A stretch of 6,166 nt of DNA from a virus. Lineage: Duplodnaviria; Heunggongvirae; Uroviricota; Caudoviricetes. The stretch lies in the IMG/VR virus record IMGVR_UViG_2675903536_000005, one strand, 5' to 3'. Numbering within the stretch: the first letter of the stretch is position 1; every line of letters starts with the position of its first letter. The position numbers and the translations under genes are program-made. Positions 1 to 6,166 of this stretch are shown one piece after another. The notes below the pieces were generated by a model, which was not told the DNA's origin, did not search any database, and worked only from the letters and a program-made list of their open reading frames with translations.

Positions 1-130
1 CAGGCTTCACTTTAAAGTACGGCGGGTCCGTGACTATCAGGTCAACAGAATTTTCGGGTAACGACCGGATAAATTCCAGGCAGTCGGCGTTGATTAATTC
101 ACGACTGGATATTTTTACAGTATTAAACAT
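1..130 (-). CDS. DNA methyltransferase, beta-class amino-MTase (N6-adenine or N4-cytosine), N-terminal 43 codons only; gene continues beyond window start
   Basis: Minus-strand ATG at 130-128, first in-frame start after upstream stops. Translation MFNTVKISSRELINADCLEFIRSLPENSVDLIVTDPPYFKVKP carries the DPPY catalytic motif near the N-terminus, the order typical of beta-class MTases (CcrM/M.HinfI-like N-terminus by recall). Absent from the ORF track because it is truncated at the window edge. Weak SD. Confidence 0.8.
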   Translation of the reverse strand, partial: MFNTVKISSRELINADCLEFIRSLPENSVDLIVTDPPYFKVKP

Positions 131-739: not shown

Positions 740-1768
740 ATGGCTACACTGGACGCATTCAGTAGAGTAATAACTCATCATACTATTACGATCGATACAC
801 AATACCGTACACAGAAAATTGATGATAGCATCAGATCGAACTGTGTTTGCCCGGTACCAACAATGCGTGAACTTGCTTCTAAAATAGTACGTTGTAAAGC
901 AATGATGCACAGTTATGAAAAAGGAGACTTAGTTTTAACTTTACAAGATGTAATATTCTTATCAAACAGAGCCGATAAAAAACCCAGCCATCTTGGTCTT
1001 TTAATTAATGCTGTAGATAAAAATGGAAGCACTACTGTATTAAAAAACATTAATACAGATGTTCGCACCGAAATATCACCAAAACATGAGGAAGGTGAAG
1101 GTTACGAAGTTTCTTCTCATATGATTATTTCTCTAGACGGAAATATGCGAACGTATGACATGAGTTTTATGCCAATACCAGGAGTTTCCACAGCAAAAAT
1201 AAATGGTTTCCTGAATAAAGTTCTCTTTAACGTAGCCAAAGATAATGAAGATATCTTTTCATGTCACACTTTAACAAATGAAGTGTCAAGTTTAACAAAG
1301 AAAAAAATAAAAGTATTATACAAGCCAGTCTTTGATATATCTGGAAAGTTAGATGAAGATTTGTTCAATAAAATAAATAAAGAAGGACTTTCTGATGTCG
1401 TTTTGGTAAAGAATGAATACAGAACTATTAATGCGCCAGATGTTAACGCGGCTATTATTCCTAAAGAAAGTACTTTACGCTTAGTACCAAACCATGGCCC
1501 CAACAATGTCCTTGGATGGATAAAATCTGTCTCAAACTTCTTTAAAGAAGATAAAAATGGAGGTTATGACTTAATAAAAATAAAATTCAAAGAGCCAGAG
1601 ACAGGATTCACAAGACAAGTTGACCTTCAAACTTCAAATGTAAGGCTGGATGGGCTGGAAAAAACATTTATCAAAAAGAGTGTAATAAATGGTTTTTCTT
1701 CGCGCTTAAAGGATTCTTATGATAGTATTAACATGGAGTTTGTGAATAAGATTATCGAGGTCATGTGA
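740..1768 (+). CDS. Cargo gene 1: 342-aa soluble hypothetical protein, candidate sensor/partner of the membrane protein (possible distant RexA-like)
   Basis: Long ORF in a markedly AT-rich block. No transmembrane segment, no signal peptide, no Walker A, no convincing nucleotidyltransferase or nuclease motif seen. Weak SD at the ATG at 740. Tightly linked to gene 2 (stop 1766-1768, next ATG at 1776). Confidence 0.7.
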   Translation: MATLDAFSRVITHHTITIDTQYRTQKIDDSIRSNCVCPVPTMRELASKIVRCKAMMHSYEKGDLVLTLQDVIFLSNRADKKPSHLGLLINAVDKNGSTTVLKNINTDVRTEISPKHEEGEGYEVSSHMIISLDGNMRTYDMSFMPIPGVSTAKINGFLNKVLFNVAKDNEDIFSCHTLTNEVSSLTKKKIKVLYKPVFDISGKLDEDLFNKINKEGLSDVVLVKNEYRTINAPDVNAAIIPKESTLRLVPNHGPNNVLGWIKSVSNFFKEDKNGGYDLIKIKFKEPETGFTRQVDLQTSNVRLDGLEKTFIKKSVINGFSSRLKDSYDSINMEFVNKIIEVM

Positions 1769-1775
1769 GGCTAAT

Positions 1776-2351
1776 ATGATTAGTATATTTTCACATTTAT
1801 TTAGACCGTTTGGTTACCTTTTCATTAAGGGAATTAGTGGTAAGTGCGCATACGATTTTTATGCACCTGCCGGGCTTGCTGTGATTTCTTTTTTTTACTT
1901 TTATTTATTTAAAATACCTACATCAGACCTACTAAAAGATGGCGGCTTTATTAAGTCTATATCTGGATTTGTATCAAATCTGCCAGGTTTTTATATAGCA
2001 GCTCTTGCAGCAATAGCCACTTTCAACAGAGAACAAATTGACTACCCTCTGATAGGAACTAATGGCACTCCTTTTATTAAAATTACACGAACAAAAGAAA
2101 ATGGTAGAATTGTTGACACTCAAGAGAAACTTACCAGAAGATTATTTCTGTGCATGTTATTTTCATTTTTAACTGCCCTCAGCATATGCATAGTGATTTT
2201 CAACGCTTTTATCACACCACTAATAAACATACTGAATAATGATATAGCAAACTGGTGCTATATCATTATCTTTTTATTCCTTACATGGCAAATGCTTGTT
2301 TCAACATTTTTTGGACTATACTATCTTGGTGATAGGATTCACATTAATTAA
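1776..2351 (+). CDS. Cargo gene 2: 191-aa integral membrane protein with four predicted TM helices (RexB-like topology), candidate effector/channel
   Basis: SD GAGG at 1767-1770 overlapping the gene 1 stop, 5 nt before ATG 1776. Hydrophobic segments YAPAGLAVISFFYFYLF, FVSNLPGFYIAALAAIATF, LFLCMLFSFLTALSICIVIFNAFI and WCYIIIFLFLTWQMLVSTFFGLYYL, with a charged loop between TM2 and TM3. Local pattern (LFxxIP...DG...IAALAAIATF) resembles lambda RexB (IAILIAALTF) from memory. Confidence 0.75.
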   Translation: MISIFSHLFRPFGYLFIKGISGKCAYDFYAPAGLAVISFFYFYLFKIPTSDLLKDGGFIKSISGFVSNLPGFYIAALAAIATFNREQIDYPLIGTNGTPFIKITRTKENGRIVDTQEKLTRRLFLCMLFSFLTALSICIVIFNAFITPLINILNNDIANWCYIIIFLFLTWQMLVSTFFGLYYLGDRIHIN

Positions 2352-2706
2352 CTACCATAATGGGGTTTATAGTTATTATTACACCGCTGATAAACCCCAT
2401 GGCAGTCTGCAATTCCTTCCTAATTGTGCCATCTGAACATCTTCTCTTCTTGGCAATAGTGCGTAATGAGATACCAATAACAAAGTGAGCTATGATCAGC
2501 TCATATTCCTCTGGTTTATACTTTCGCAACCGAGCCACACAACCGTCTATCATGATGCCTTCATCATCATCACACTGGAGACATGACTTTTTACCGTGTG
2601 GTAAAAGTCCCTTGAAACCAGCCGCTATCGGCTGCCAGTCCACACCACTATTTTCTGCTGCAGCCCATGCTCCCCAGCGGTCCAATACTTCATACATATC
2701 ACGCAT
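2344..2706 (-). CDS. Q: Late-gene antitermination protein Q (QuuD/phage-82-type short Q family)
   Basis: Translation from ATG 2706 (SD GGAG 7 nt upstream): MRDMYEVLDRWGAWAAAENSGVDWQPIAAGFKGL...CLQCDDDEGIMIDGCVARLRKY...CSDGTIRKELQTAMGFISGV...MVVN. The pattern matches the DLP12 QuuD-type Q protein as recalled (RWGAWAA, IAAGFKGL, CxDDxG, GCxARL, CSDG). The track ORF starts 5 codons earlier at TTG. Confidence 0.85.
   Translation of the reverse strand: MRDMYEVLDRWGAWAAAENSGVDWQPIAAGFKGLLPHGKKSCLQCDDDEGIMIDGCVARLRKYKPEEYELIIAHFVIGISLRTIAKKRRCSDGTIRKELQTAMGFISGVIITINPIMVVN
2360..2400. repeat. Perfect 11-bp inverted repeat with 19-nt spacer at the Q/cargo junction
   Basis: ATGGGGTTTAT (2360-2370) and ATAAACCCCAT (2390-2400) are exact reverse complements; it lies within the last codons of Q, immediately next to the convergent 3' end of cargo gene 2. 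Confidence 0.9.
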
Positions 2707-2723
2707 CAACTTTCTCCACAAAA

Positions 2724-3713
2724 TCAGGACAGCACACCAATCGCCAGCGCGCGATCGATAAAACGAAATATCAGCTCCAGTTGGGAACCATACTTCTCTT
2801 CAAATGCCACGGTATCCGCATGCAGTTCGTCATGGTGTTTTCTGCACAAAGGCAACACAAAAAGGTCATGCGCTTTAGTACCCATTCCACCCTGACCATG
2901 GCCAATCAGGTGATGCGGATCGTCGGCTGGCTTACCACAACATGCACACGGCTGCGTCTTAACCCAGCGCGTGTACTTTTCATTAACCCAGCGACGACGT
3001 TTGGGGCGTAACATAAAAGACTCCGGCGACTCCGGATCCACTTTCAGCGCCAGCACCTTTTTCGCTTTATCCTGGATAATGCTGGTGGCAGGAACCGAAG
3101 GCACAAGGTCACTCTCCCGGGTGACAGACGGCAAAACAGGCTTCGGTAATCTCAGGGCCTTACGGGCTGCACTTTCCGGTAAGGCATCCGCCAGGTCATT
3201 ACGAACCAGCCACCAGCACAGTTCCGGCATTGTCACAACGTGACTGTCATCAAAACCAAGATCACGGCGCACAACAGACAACACCCAGCGGGCACAGTTA
3301 TCCGTTGCCATTGATTCCAGCCGTTCCGTGAACTGGTCACGGAGAAGATTGTCACAGTGCCAGCACAGACGGATTGCGCCCGGAGCGTGTCGCATTGTGG
3401 TCATGTTCTCGCTGTGCCAGTCGGAATGAGGCCACTGGCAGCCTTTTTCACGAAGTAACCAGCTTTCAAGACATTCCACGCCACCAGCACGACGGATCAC
3501 TGCCTCATTGCGGAACACGGCCCGAACGGCAAGATCATCCGCCAGCGGTTGTGATGCCGCCGGAACGGCACCACTGGCGAAAGATGAATAACGTTCCGGC
3601 TCAGGCTCCAGCAGGACACGCCCCTGCATAAACAAGGGCATCAGCTCTGAACCTGGTCTGAACAATACGATCCCCATACGCGGGGCAATTTCAGGGGTCA
3701 GTAGTGCTCTCAC
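2724..3713 (-). CDS. DUF968-like prophage protein with C-terminal HNH-like Cys/His zinc motif (YdfU-like)
   Basis: C-terminus CACCGKPADDPHHLIGHGQGGMGTKAHDLFVLPLCRKHHDELH shows CxxC...HH...PLCxxHH...H, typical of HNH-type/DUF968 proteins found next to Q in lambdoid prophages. Start ambiguous: GTG 3719 (track), GTG 3713 (preferred, SD GAGG 5 nt upstream) or ATG 3677. Confidence 0.7.
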   Translation of the reverse strand: MRALLTPEIAPRMGIVLFRPGSELMPLFMQGRVLLEPEPERYSSFASGAVPAASQPLADDLAVRAVFRNEAVIRRAGGVECLESWLLREKGCQWPHSDWHSENMTTMRHAPGAIRLCWHCDNLLRDQFTERLESMATDNCARWVLSVVRRDLGFDDSHVVTMPELCWWLVRNDLADALPESAARKALRLPKPVLPSVTRESDLVPSVPATSIIQDKAKKVLALKVDPESPESFMLRPKRRRWVNEKYTRWVKTQPCACCGKPADDPHHLIGHGQGGMGTKAHDLFVLPLCRKHHDELHADTVAFEEKYGSQLELIFRFIDRALAIGVLS

Positions 3714-3720
3714 GGTCACC

Positions 3721-4536
3721 TCAATGAACGGTATCGAGCAGCTTTAACAGCTCAGGGAATCGGGATTCGAAGAAATGCGGCTGCGTCTCGCGCGGATTTG
3801 CAGGACTGGTGATGTTCTTGCCGAACATGCAGCCTTTCGCGGTCAGCGACCAGAATTTTTTGATGTTGTTAATCGCGGTACGACTGTATCGTTCGCGTTG
3901 TTCAACGATCCCCAGCTTCGCCATCTGGTGATATGCCTGATTAGCCGTCAGGCGGATACCATACTGCTTCAGCAGTGCACTCAGCGACAGCGTAGGGCGG
4001 CTTGAACCATCTGGCGCATCAGCAGGTGCATCAATGGCATAGATCGGCATAAGTTCAGGAAGACCAGCTACCTTTGATAATTTCTGGTATGCACCAAGTT
4101 TCGAGGAGTTTGACAGATTTAGAGTCTTTGCTGCTGATTCAAGCAGAATGACCCCGGATTTAATTTTGTCGGATGTGGTTTCTTCTGGTGATGAATTATG
4201 AAGCGCATCAAAAGTACGTATCACTTTTAAGCTGAATGCCGGGCTGATCCACATTGCATATGCATAGACCAGCTCTTTACAGACATACGTCCCACCATTG
4301 CGCCCCTGAATGGTGATGACAGGAATACTACGGGAATCTCCCGTAGTTTCTTCTTCCAATAATTCCACAAGAGCCTTCGTTTCAGGACGACGCATAAACT
4401 CGTGAACTTCCAGCGAACGGGAGGAGCGATTCTCACCAGCGGCAAGAAGAGCAGCTTTCTGAAGGTCGTTAAGACAGTAGTTAGATTCGAAGTACTGGCG
4501 CACAGAAACGCCATCAATTACAAGCAACTGATTCAT
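3721..4536 (-). CDS. KilA-N domain protein with KilAC-like C-terminal domain (putative phage antirepressor)
   Basis: ATG 4536 with SD GGAG 6 nt upstream (track ORF starts 4 codons earlier at GTG). N-terminal region has the KilA-N signature (ITIQGRNGGTYVCKELVYAYAMWISPAFSLKVIRTFDAL); C-terminal part (LSALLKQYGIRLT...KKFWSLTAKG) resembles Ant/KilAC C-domains by recall. Confidence 0.75.
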   Translation of the reverse strand: MNQLLVIDGVSVRQYFESNYCLNDLQKAALLAAGENRSSRSLEVHEFMRRPETKALVELLEEETTGDSRSIPVITIQGRNGGTYVCKELVYAYAMWISPAFSLKVIRTFDALHNSSPEETTSDKIKSGVILLESAAKTLNLSNSSKLGAYQKLSKVAGLPELMPIYAIDAPADAPDGSSRPTLSLSALLKQYGIRLTANQAYHQMAKLGIVEQRERYSRTAINNIKKFWSLTAKGCMFGKNITSPANPRETQPHFFESRFPELLKLLDTVH

Positions 4537-4633
4537 TGGTTTCTCCACAAATTTTTATCCACGAGCGGGACTGCACTCCCTTTTCGTTGATGCAGGATGA
4601 ACTTACTGCGATTTTTAATAGTTATCAAGGATA

Positions 4634-4653
4634 CACTGTTCATAAATACAGTA
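4634..4653. promoter_or_regulatory. LexA (SOS) box, CTGT-N8-ACAG, in the intergenic region upstream of the KilA-N antirepressor gene
   Basis: caCTGTtcataaatACAGta at 4634-4653 matches the E. coli SOS-box consensus taCTGT(at)4ACAGta in both half-sites with an AT-rich spacer. It lies about 100 bp upstream of ATG 4536, adjacent to candidate minus-strand promoter elements (TTGATA 4628-4623, TAAGTT 4605-4600). Confidence 0.6.
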
Positions 4654-4698: not shown

Positions 4699-5094
4699 TT
4701 ACCGAGTTGCTAATTTGCAACTCGCTTTTTCGTACTTACTGATAGTGATCTCGACCTTCCCCTCCGGGATAACCGGTCCCCACTCCACCAGCATTCTTTT
4801 CACCTGACTGTCGTCTTCCCACACACCCGCGTGGGTCAGGGCGTCAAACAGCGCCTTGTTATAGTTGTCCAGATCACGGATCCGGTTATCCGGAGGAAAC
4901 AACACGATCTCCACTGAAGCAGGTGCCGACGTTGGTTTTGGCAGACGACGTAACTGCTCAACTATTGCTGCACACGCCGCGCTCTGGAATTTTCGCCCCG
5001 CCGCGCTTATCAGGCTCTTACCAGCAAACGCCCCTTTGTTGGGGTGTCGCCAGTACGTGTTCACGCTGGGCGGAAAAGGCAGGATCAGCTTCAT
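4699..5094 (-). CDS. rusA: RusA-family Holliday junction resolvase (crossover junction endodeoxyribonuclease)
   Basis: 131-aa product aligns by eye to E. coli RusA: PFPPSVNTYWRH (RusA LPWPPSNNRYYRH), RDLDNYNKALFDALTHAGVWEDDSQV (RusA [26 protein letters not shown]). Start ATG overlaps the upstream stop (ATGA). About 7 residues longer at the C-terminus than canonical RusA. Confidence 0.9.
   Translation of the reverse strand: MKLILPFPPSVNTYWRHPNKGAFAGKSLISAAGRKFQSAACAAIVEQLRRLPKPTSAPASVEIVLFPPDNRIRDLDNYNKALFDALTHAGVWEDDSQVKRMLVEWGPVIPEGKVEITISKYEKASCKLATR
4703..4730 (+). terminator. Terminator-like hairpin plus T5 in plus-strand orientation, embedded in the 3' end of rusA
   Basis: 8-bp stem cgagttgc(4703-4710)/gcaactcg(4717-4724), 6-nt loop, followed on the plus strand by cTTTTTcg (4725-4732). 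It overlaps the last 8 codons of the minus-strand rusA ORF. No plus-strand gene is evident, so function is uncertain. Confidence 0.3.
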
Positions 5095-5417
5095 ACTTTC
5101 AGGCCTCTCTCATGTAACCAATGGGCTGCACGCAGCCTGGCGTTTTCCTCACCGGCAAGCAGTGAGCGGATAATCCCGACCGCCTCGCTGTCGTCGTCCT
5201 TCACCACGGTATGAAGCGTGATCCCCCGGGCCACACCACGCTTTATCGTGATGACGCCTTTTTTCTCCAGTGCGCGAAGATGCTCCACCGCTGCATTCAC
5301 TGAACGGTATCCCAGCATGGTTGCCACCTCCTGATTGGTTGGCGGGAAGCCACGTTCTTTCTGATAAGAAATCAGCATATCCAGCACCTGCTGCTGGCAT
5401 TGAGTTAACGTCGTCAT
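5091..5417 (-). CDS. LexA N-terminal DNA-binding-domain-like protein (108 aa), lacking the S24 peptidase domain
   Basis: QQQVLDMLISYQKERGFPPTNQEVATMLGYRSVNAAVEHLRALEKKGVITIKRGVARGITL parallels LexA residues about 5-70 ([62 protein letters not shown]), including the recognition helix S-x-NAA-x-EHL. The ORF ends after 108 aa with no Ser/Lys protease domain. ATGA start/stop overlaps on both sides. Confidence 0.8.
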   Translation of the reverse strand: MTTLTQCQQQVLDMLISYQKERGFPPTNQEVATMLGYRSVNAAVEHLRALEKKGVITIKRGVARGITLHTVVKDDDSEAVGIIRSLLAGEENARLRAAHWLHERGLKV

Positions 5418-6067
5418 GCCGCCATCTCCCTGACCAGTTTTTCCGCCTGCTGGCGAACCTGCGCCAGAAACGCCTCACCACATGCCTCAAGTTCATCGCG
5501 CCCGATGTAGCTGATTGCCGGTCCCTTCCAGGTCTTGTCGAAAACAGCAATAGCACCAGCGAAGAAAGCGCCTGTCGGCACCTGCTTCTCATCTTTCGGG
5601 ATAAACCAGGCAGGCAGTTCAAAACCAATACGCCCGCGAATAAAAGCAATATGATCTGCATCTTCCGGCCACCACACTTCGCTGGTGGCAGCTTTGATCA
5701 GGAAAACATAGCGCCCGCCTTTATCACGCATGGCACTGGCATGTTTCATGATGTAACGCATGCCGGTGATGTATTGCCCCTCATGCTGACTGGCGCGGCT
5801 GTATGGGGGATTACCAAAGGCAGCACCTTTAAGCTCCGCAAGACGTTCTGACCAGTCATGCGCCAGCGCGTTGTCTTCCGCCGTGTAATACGCGGCACAT
5901 TTGGCGTTATCACCGTCAGTGAACAGATCCAGAACAAACGGGCCAAACAGGGTGTTAATTCCCCAGAAAATGTTGTCCGGCGTGCGCCACTGATCGCCCA
6001 CTTCCTTCAGTTCATGGGCTGGTTTGTTCCGCAGTTCCACCAGCGCCTGGCAATATTTATTACTCAT
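5414..6067 (-). CDS. Phage Dam-family DNA N6-adenine methyltransferase
   Basis: Translation from ATG 6067 (MSNKYCQ..., GGGGG upstream) contains WRTPDNIF, NAKCAAYYTAEDNAL and the catalytic FGNPPY motif followed by WWPED and FIRGRIGF, matching the phage N6-adenine MTase family (T1 Dam-like) as recalled. The track ORF extends to a GTG at 6100. Confidence 0.85.
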   Translation of the reverse strand: MSNKYCQALVELRNKPAHELKEVGDQWRTPDNIFWGINTLFGPFVLDLFTDGDNAKCAAYYTAEDNALAHDWSERLAELKGAAFGNPPYSRASQHEGQYITGMRYIMKHASAMRDKGGRYVFLIKAATSEVWWPEDADHIAFIRGRIGFELPAWFIPKDEKQVPTGAFFAGAIAVFDKTWKGPAISYIGRDELEACGEAFLAQVRQQAEKLVREMAA

Positions 6068-6147
6068 TAAGCCCCCACGTAATTCCCTGACAGATACCAC
6101 TCTTCACCCGATGCAGCGCGCTTGCTGCTTTTCCGTAAGCACCGCTC

Positions 6148-6166
6148 CTGTCTCTTTATACACATC
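6148..6166. other. Tn5 mosaic-end / Nextera adapter-like sequence at the window terminus (probable library artefact or contig end)
   Basis: ctgtctctttatacacatc equals the 19-bp Tn5 ME CTGTCTCTTATACACATCT except for one inserted T and the missing final T, and it abuts the window end exactly. Confidence 0.6.

Follow-up and report, generated by a model that had tools for sequence, protein, structure and literature searches.

The capture of a LexA DNA-binding domain by a phage has a single characterised example, gp6 of the Bacillus thuringiensis tectivirus GIL01, a truncated LexA homologue that shares 44% identity with the LexA domain of its host, recognises a site other than the LexA boxes, overlapping the -35 element of the P3 promoter, and activates late transcription (PMC6182141). 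As gp6 shows, a LexA domain taken up by a phage can come to recognise another target and take on another activity. In LexA itself, helix III contacts DNA through Ser39, Asn41, Ala42, Glu44 and Glu45 (PMC3091678), and in the operator-bound protein the interface between the two N-terminal domains is synergistic with DNA binding (PMC3159453). Two other systems bear on the locus described here: lambda NinH, a nin-region mimic of the host protein Fis that has been characterised as a homodimer that binds and bends DNA (PMC7166090), and the Gifsy prophages, which carry LexA-controlled dinI-antirepressor operons and whose induction is blocked by an uncleavable LexA, the lexA3 allele (Lemire et al. 2011, PMC3121763). 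In this report, we analyse a LexA-like gene in IMG/VR virus record IMGVR_UViG_2675903536_000005 (Caudoviricetes), a stretch of 6,166 nucleotides that is hereafter called the window. We propose, with a probability of about 0.4, that its product is a RecA-insensitive and probably dimeric regulator derived from LexA, which is made early in lytic growth together with the Holliday-junction resolvase RusA and acts on LexA-box-like operators with an altered preference.

We first consider the identity of the 108-amino-acid (aa) product. The Pfam domain LexA_DNA_bind (PF01726) covers residues 1-65, corresponding to profile positions 1-65 of 65, with E=2.9e-19 and 69 bits against a cut-off of 23.7 bits; a phmmer search of the PDB matched the LexA DNA-binding domain 1lea (E=7.5e-16), and BLASTP against E. 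coli LexA gave 39 identities in 90 positions (43%, E=9e-22), covering LexA residues 1-86. The match to phrog_362 is full length (residues 1-108 against 1-106 of 106, E=2.4e-59), and that to TIGR00498, the lexA equivalog, reaches 71 bits, below the cut-off of 110.95, over profile positions 1-91 only. Peptidase_S24, the domain that holds the Ser119-Lys156 dyad of LexA, was not detected in the protein by Pfam, and the chain ends at residue 108. The first-pass annotation of this DNA, made from the letters alone, had described the product as a LexA DNA-binding domain without a peptidase and had proposed an HMM (hidden Markov model) search with LexA_DNA_bind as a check; the full-profile match, the identity to LexA 1-86 and the missing S24 domain bear this description out, and its term 'non-cleavable' holds as well, because autocleavage of the LexA type is impossible without that domain. 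The protein is thus predicted to be insensitive to RecA*, in that it could not be turned off by RecA*-stimulated autocleavage. Lacking both the S24 domain and Glu44, it is not to be classed as LexA; its place is in PHROG 362 and, in a looser sense, among the truncated phage LexA homologues. A PADLOC match to CARF3 (E=3e-4) was marginal and of the winged-helix type, and was disregarded.

The AlphaFold2 (AF2) model of the protein, which was based on 22 family members, consists of a LexA-type winged helix-turn-helix and a C-terminal two-helix hairpin (Table 1), joined by a flexible linker at residues 71-75 with a predicted local distance difference test score (pLDDT) below 50. In the winged helix, the modelled helices span residues 6-22, 28-35 and 40-52 and the beta wing is formed by 56-58 and 66-68; Foldseek superposes 68 residues on DNA-bound LexA (3jso) with a root-mean-square deviation of 1.0 A and 50% identity. 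The same layout of winged helix, linker and hairpin was obtained in the AF2 model of an Enterobacter member that is 44% identical (P0130). Within the hairpin, two positions (A97 and L101) do not vary at all, and I82, L86, L87 and W100 show conservation among close family members. Because the hairpin appears too small to be stable alone, we infer that it pairs with that of a second copy as a four-helix bundle, and it most likely replaces the LexA C-terminal domain as the dimerisation element. Several other proteins (P0132, P0133, P0149, P0153 and others) carry tandem LexA-type winged helices on a single chain without S24, which is an alternative route to a 'dimeric' uncleavable LexA-like binder. 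The first-pass annotation had also noted that the string LLAGEEN loosely resembles the LexA cleavage site. LLAGE does align with the LexA string VAAGE in the first tail helix and A88-G89 with the scissile A84-G85; in the model these residues lie at a helix end and turn, with no catalytic domain in cis, and the motif is not conserved in distant family members, whereas the hydrophobic positions and Ala97 and Leu101 are conserved there.

The recognition helix resembles LexA more closely than the domain does overall, with 8 of 10 residues identical to LexA (80%) as against about 50% across the whole domain, and four of the five helix-III contacts of LexA are retained, Glu44 being the one that is changed (to Val). 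The earlier statement that this helix matches LexA almost residue for residue is therefore correct as to the strings and the degree of identity, but it passes over the replacement of a DNA contact. Among the 22 members, down to 39% identity, neither S39 nor the wing residues R64-G65-I66 vary and N41 hardly does, and the LexA signature S-x-N-A-A-x-E-H-L is retained in most lineages of the family. The substitution P40V was judged neutral because Val is found at position 40 of bona fide LexAs. A full-length, S24-containing LexA of 209 aa (P0187) carries the helix RSINAAVTHL, that is, Val44 and Thr45; Val44 is thus compatible with a bona fide LexA architecture, presumably one that has a different operator. 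Given that Ser39, Asn41, Ala42, Glu45 and the wing are kept and that these phages are rich in SOS boxes, binding of the LexA-like protein to SOS boxes is possible.

Gene content and order identify the locus as a lambdoid nin region. Annotated relatives carry, in this order, cI, cro cII (ant) O/P perC-like dam, LexA-like, rusA, KilA-N, DUF968 and Q, and the genes from cro to Q around the LexA-like gene lie on one strand, closely packed and overlapping, with almost no intergenic DNA. The translational coupling to dam and rusA noted earlier is borne out, as both ATGA overlaps are present in the sequence. The only invariant neighbour is rusA, which lies downstream in every lineage examined, down to 39% identity: a 4-nt overlap with the LexA-like gene was found in 79 of 80 IMG/VR loci and also in the divergent loci L004-L007 and L010 (43-48% identity), the rusA start lies 2 nt past the LexA-like stop in L013, and one small gene intervenes in L008 and L012. 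In contrast, the upstream neighbour varies by lineage and may be Dam, PerC-like, a large cytosine-methylase-like (Dcm-like) gene or a replication gene, and the slot between rusA and DUF968 holds KilA-N alleles or pRha/ANT antirepressor-type genes or is empty (L008, L012 and L013). The small open reading frames (ORFs) adjoining the LexA-like gene in L008 and L013 had no Pfam match and are not DinI. Apparent Dam/LexA-like 'fusions' of ~180 aa (P0021, P0092 and P0098) are too short and look like artefacts of frameshift or truncation. The lambda nin region is a delayed-early unit transcribed from pR, and from this position the LexA-like protein would be lacking in a lysogen at rest and appear when lytic development starts.

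We define the family as proteins of about 105-135 aa with a winged helix and a C-terminal two-helix hairpin, encoded in the nin region immediately upstream of rusA; the window protein has both the structure and the synteny, and this placement was also seen in seven divergent lineages. The gene was found in 2,233 of the 5,426 complete genomes of E. coli (about 41%), which hold 2,855 copies in all, with a maximum of four in one genome, and the ratio of nonsynonymous to synonymous polymorphism (pN/pS) among 38 distinct alleles is 0.06, which indicates strong purifying selection. In NCBI and phage records, proteins with 95-100% identity go under the names 'LexA family transcriptional regulator', 'LexA DNA binding domain protein' or 'LexA-like protein', and their carriers include Shiga toxin (Stx) phages of the Stx2a, Stx2c and Stx2k types, the Shigella phages SfII, SfIV and SfV, mEp460, cdtI and the PhiR series. 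An exhaustive HMMER search recovered ~10 more clusters at 50% identity, with lengths of 105-165 aa and matches running through the C-terminal tail; the named sources of the distant clusters are Cronobacter, Kosakonia, Enterobacter, Cedecea, Klebsiella and Salmonella, and closer relatives have Citrobacter, Hafnia and Salmonella as their named sources. A single-protein scan of species-representative genomes returned only Shigella and ordinary LexAs. Full-text literature searches found no functional study of this PHROG 362-type family, 'LexA family' in papers on Stx phages denoting either CI-type repressors or a gene merely listed as a pham, and a Foldseek search of BFVD returned many small LexA-domain-only phage proteins, among which none of those with a name bears one that denotes a characterised function. 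The LexA-like gene is thus, as an object, an ordinary and widely annotated prophage gene.

SOS-type sites were scored with a matrix built from E. coli SOS boxes. The window holds three SOS-like sites, of 21.7, 21.3 and 17.9 bits, whereas 0.32 sites of at least 10 bits are expected per shuffled window. The highest-scoring site (4634-4653) includes the sole exact CTGT-N8-ACAG of the window and lies 438 bp past the stop codon of the LexA-like gene. A weak promoter-like sequence, TTGATA-17-TAAGTT, was read by eye right downstream of the box (span 4590-4653); a consensus promoter scan found none in the 150-bp rusA/KilA-N spacer. On the minus strand, KilA-N, DUF968 and Q follow the box and the promoter-like sequence (2344-4653), with no terminator visible between them, so LexA cleavage could turn on Q, and hence the late genes, bypassing cI. 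This box is probably an operator of host LexA for KilA-N, and possibly for DUF968 and Q too, and it is a candidate target of the LexA-like protein; the label 'antirepressor' given earlier to the KilA-N product is an assumption.

Similar sites occur elsewhere in the window and in its relatives. The site of 21.3 bits lies at the beginning of an N6/N4 DNA methylase gene downstream of Q, which starts at 130 on the minus strand, runs off the left end and encodes a DPPY motif; relatives have a homologous box there, among them the distant L013 of Salmonella (8739-8758), which suggests that the methylase is under LexA control. In E. coli-type loci, the gene of the cI-type repressor has a near-perfect SOS box, TACTGTAT[G/A]TAAAAACAGTA, inside its coding sequence, where the linker that joins the helix-turn-helix (HTH) to the S24 domain is encoded (...NTVCKNS... 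/ ...STVFINS...). In L007 (48% identity) the box reads TACTGTTTATAAATACAGTA with a different spacer sequence, and it is thus kept in two lineages although the linker sequence around it diverges. The LexA-like gene is present in each of the 13 phage records with this cI allele (13/13), but this co-occurrence is not independent evidence because the early region as a whole is common to these phages. Two loci, L008 (Cedecea/Enterobacter type) and L013 (Salmonella), have an SOS box at 5470-5600 together with a terminator hairpin and a sigma-70-like promoter; these elements lie ~438 bp upstream of the LexA-like gene and are followed by a ~140-nt leader and an ORF of 75-82 aa (orf80) that is conserved between the two loci. 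This unit would run on through rusA, DUF968 and Q, which would put Q under direct LexA control. Taken together, the SOS boxes fit a protein that acts on SOS-type operators, its own included, but they are suggestive only.

Our data suggest a model whereby the LexA-like protein descends from the N-terminal domain of a LexA of enterobacterial origin and acquired, beyond a flexible linker, a hairpin (75-103) that would stand in for the C-terminal dimerisation of LexA, the winged helix (1-70) being kept. The protein would be produced in lytic growth, which after SOS induction is the time of host LexA destruction. Its targets are most likely inverted repeats of the LexA-box type, with a base preference that may be altered or relaxed because the contact Glu44 is replaced, and it would thus act, presumably as a repressor, as a LexA surrogate with partly overlapping targets and as an imperfect mimic. 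Within the window, the candidate targets would be two boxes, one upstream of KilA-N, DUF968 and Q and the other at the beginning of the methylase gene.

Several findings weigh against this model. Residue 44 is V, A, F, T, L or Y across 11 lineages and never Glu, whereas Glu44 is present in 16 of 18 sampled full-length or truncated LexAs having the S.NA helix motif, among which positions 40 and 45 vary; the one systematic change of the family therefore strikes the most conserved contact. The first-pass annotation had regarded substitutions at base-contacting residues as evidence against LexA-like specificity, and here the finding is divided, with Glu44 lost in 11 of 11 lineages and the other four contacts kept in the window protein. 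Positions 44-46 read VEH, TDM, FEH, AEH, LLH, YEH, FIH or ATV according to lineage. The Enterobacteriaceae hosts of these lineages have one common SOS box, so a pure LexA mimic would not be expected to drift at 44-46. In addition, the spacer with the 4634-4653 box was found in 9 of 80 IMG/VR loci (protein at least 97% identical), always beside a KilA-N allele that is 100% identical, in 5 of 50 phage records carrying the LexA-like gene and in 203 places in E. coli genomes as against 2,855 LexA-like copies; the remaining loci have a 66-70%-identical KilA-N allele that abuts rusA without the box. The box thus accompanies only about 7-11% of LexA-like copies and follows one KilA-N allele, and a specific link between gene and box, which the first-pass annotation had suggested, was rejected on these counts although the box itself is genuine. 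No SOS-like site of at least 10 bits was found in the sequence examined of three of the seven divergent loci (L004, L010 and L012), and host LexA alone accounts for every box seen. Finally, the one characterised precedent, gp6, has a distinct site and activates (PMC6182141).

One alternative is that of a private operator, in which the LexA domain captured from the host would recognise a phage-specific site as an activator or a repressor and leave the SOS regulon unaffected. We consider this somewhat unlikely. The family-wide loss of Glu44, the diversification of positions 44-46 by lineage, as immunity-type specificities diversify, and the inconsistent linkage to SOS boxes all argue for it, as does the gp6 precedent at a like identity (44% to the host LexA domain, compared with 43% here; PMC6182141). 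However, a screen for over-represented inverted repeats, in which every 4-mer repeat with a spacer of 4-12 was counted across 190 kb of loci after de-duplication (which was imperfect and inflates the p-values), gave no candidate linked to the gene: the top results were terminator hairpins, tRNA stems and immunity-region operators. Moreover, the nin operon around the gene leaves nearly no intergenic DNA for such a site, the signature S-x-N-A-A-x-E-H-L is kept in more lineages than a full rewriting of specificity would predict, and, with lambdoid late transcription being driven by Q, the need for an activator is not obvious.

The proposal of the first-pass annotation, a faithful non-cleavable mimic that binds canonical SOS boxes including that at 4634-4653 and re-represses the SOS regulon in lytic growth, seems to us improbable. 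The four kept contacts, the conserved wing and the neutral P40V are what such a mimic would show, near-consensus SOS boxes are present in the window and in the cI linker of the 13 phage records with that cI allele, which all have the gene, and the SOS box that precedes the transcription unit of the LexA-like gene itself in L008 and L013 recalls lexA autoregulation. There would also be a clear pay-off, since lexA3 blocks prophages that need a LexA-controlled antirepressor (PMC3121763). Against this, E44 is lost in every lineage and the helix varies though the hosts share one SOS box; the 4634-4653 box is absent beside most copies, three lineages have no SOS-like site nearby, and the shared descent of the whole early region explains the co-occurrence with the cI box.

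That the protein is not a transcription factor but assists RusA in recombination, as an accessory or architectural factor that binds DNA, is very unlikely in our view, although the only invariant feature of the family is its place just upstream of rusA, overlapping or abutting it in the window lineage, L004-L007, L010 and L013 and one small gene off in L008 and L012. The copy numbers in E. coli genomes are nearly equal (2,974 places for this rusA allele and 2,855 for the LexA-like gene), and, as NinH illustrates, host DNA-binding proteins do have mimics encoded in nin regions (PMC7166090). Coupling to rusA by ATGA is weak evidence, because such coupling is the norm for nin genes, and no LexA-like/RusA fusion proteins were found among the homologues. 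The two proteins are not obviously co-evolving, since in the same loci RusA is far more conserved (67-77% identity) than its LexA-like partner (43-49%). The RusA of DLP12, a K-12 prophage whose nin region has no LexA-like gene, resolves junctions alone. Lastly, a decaying lexA remnant without a function of its own, to which the reach of the LexA alignment up to the cleavage-site string and the existence of frameshifted database alleles (P0024 and P0030) might point, is effectively refuted by the pN/pS of 0.06, the thousands of intact copies and the conservation of both the length and the non-LexA-like C-terminal hairpin in at least 11 lineages (50% clustering) from several genera.

The gene occurs in roughly two of five sequenced E. 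coli strains, and Stx phages and serotype-converting phages of Shigella are among its carriers. If SOS-type operators are bound, induced prophages would carry a RecA-proof substitute for LexA, and ideas on how the SOS response of lysogens is timed and brought to an end, on the induction of Shiga-toxin phages and on the competition among prophages, which are numerous in pathogenic E. coli, would have to be revised. In the strongest form of this idea, which we regard as a long shot, the uncleavable surrogate present in about 41% of E. coli strains would re-repress SOS-box promoters during the lytic growth of its own phage, shut down the host SOS regulon and block co-resident prophages that depend on a LexA-controlled antirepressor; ruvAB, being LexA-regulated, would be re-repressed as well, and the coupled RusA would supply the Holliday-junction resolution thereby lost. 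The surrogate would then be a weapon between prophages, as the lexA3 allele blocks Gifsy induction. If, on the other hand, the target is private, the family would represent a second, independent re-use of LexA's DNA-binding domain by phages after GIL01 gp6.

Table 1. Positions of the features discussed, in window coordinates unless another locus is named
Feature	Position	Strand	Basis and remarks
LexA-like gene	5091..5417	minus	ATG start, 108 aa; PHROG 362 'LexA family transcriptional regulator'
LexA-type winged helix-turn-helix, residues 1-70	5208..5417	minus	AF2 pLDDT about 80-90; Foldseek
Recognition helix RSVNAAVEHL, residues 38-47	5277..5306	minus	Alignments; S39, N41, A42 and E45 kept, E44 replaced by Val
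Two-helix hairpin, residues 75-103 (75-88 and 93-103)	5109..5195	minus	AF2 pLDDT about 90; candidate dimerisation module
ATGA overlap of dam stop (TGA) and LexA-like start (ATG)	5414..5417	minus	Read from sequence
ATGA overlap of LexA-like stop and rusA start	5091..5094	minus	Read from sequence
rusA, Holliday-junction resolvase	4699..5094	minus	Pfam RusA E=6.4e-15
Dam-type N6-adenine methyltransferase gene, variable upstream neighbour	5414..6100	minus	Pfam Dam E=1.1e-45
Near-consensus SOS box CACTGTTCATAAATACAGTA	4634..4653		150-bp rusA/KilA-N spacer; exact CTGT-N8-ACAG core 4636-4651; 21.7 bits
KilA-N domain gene, downstream of SOS box	3721..4548	minus	Pfam KilA-N E=1.3e-15
SOS-like box GACTGGATATTTTTACAGTA	103-122		21.3 bits; codons 3-9 (MFNTVKISS...) of N6/N4 methylase gene
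Weaker SOS-like site TACTGTATTAAAAAACATTA	1033-1052		17.9 bits, ACAT for ACAG; inside PDC-M53A-like gene
cI-linker box	L015 1546-1565; L002 13627-13646; L003 12144-12163; L007 836-855
PDC-M53A/B-like gene pair	740-1768 and 1776-2351	plus	PADLOC; convergent with Q

Two other parts of the window deserve mention. The gene pair convergent with Q encodes a 342-aa protein that matches the PADLOC candidate defence PDC-M53A (E=7.8e-32) and a hydrophobic, membrane-like protein of 191 aa that matches the candidate PDC-M53B (E=1.7e-54), neither of which had a Pfam or NCBIfam match; the pair sits in the moron slot downstream of Q, and 58-64%-identical versions are found in SfII and Stx2a_1447. The last 19 bases (6148-6166, ctgtctctttatacacatc) match the Tn5/Nextera mosaic end CTGTCTCTTATACACATCT with one extra T, and all phage matches to the window end at 6147; this segment looks like an adapter remnant at the contig end rather than biology.

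Among known systems, GIL01 gp6 resembles the LexA-like protein in being phage-encoded, in having a LexA winged helix without S24 and in belonging to the lytic phase, as host LexA control is lifted; Tectiviridae 'LexA DNA binding domain' proteins are also among the BFVD matches, at 23-28% identity. The differences are that gp6, at about 66 aa, has no C-terminal extension, whereas the present family adds a linker and a two-helix hairpin, that gp6 belongs to a tectivirus of a Gram-positive host and not to lambdoid prophages of Enterobacteriaceae, and that binding of a non-LexA site and P3 activation have been demonstrated for gp6, whereas DNA binding by the LexA-like protein is a prediction. E. 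coli LexA, including its N-terminal cleavage fragment LexA(1-84), shares with the LexA-like protein the fold (1.0 A), 43% identity through residue 86, four of five contacts and the wing, and the uncleavable lexA3/Ind- proteins share with it the property of not being inactivable by autocleavage; unlike LexA, the LexA-like protein lacks the S24 peptidase and dimerisation domain, has Glu44 replaced, possesses a C-terminal hairpin of its own and is encoded in a phage lytic operon, whereas lexA is an autoregulated chromosomal gene. Lambda NinH is similarly a small nin-region copy of the DNA-binding part of a global host protein that binds DNA, in the same operon as a junction-resolving nuclease; however, it derives from the C-terminal HTH of Fis and not from the LexA winged helix, so that the relation is one of analogy and not of homology. 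Unlike the present locus, the Gifsy operons are targets of host LexA that encode DinI and small antirepressors but no LexA-like protein; in both cases, a terminator, a promoter and a LexA box lie past the replication genes, here ahead of the LexA-like gene of L008 and L013, and the arrangement is comparable to that of the SOS box ahead of KilA-N in the window.

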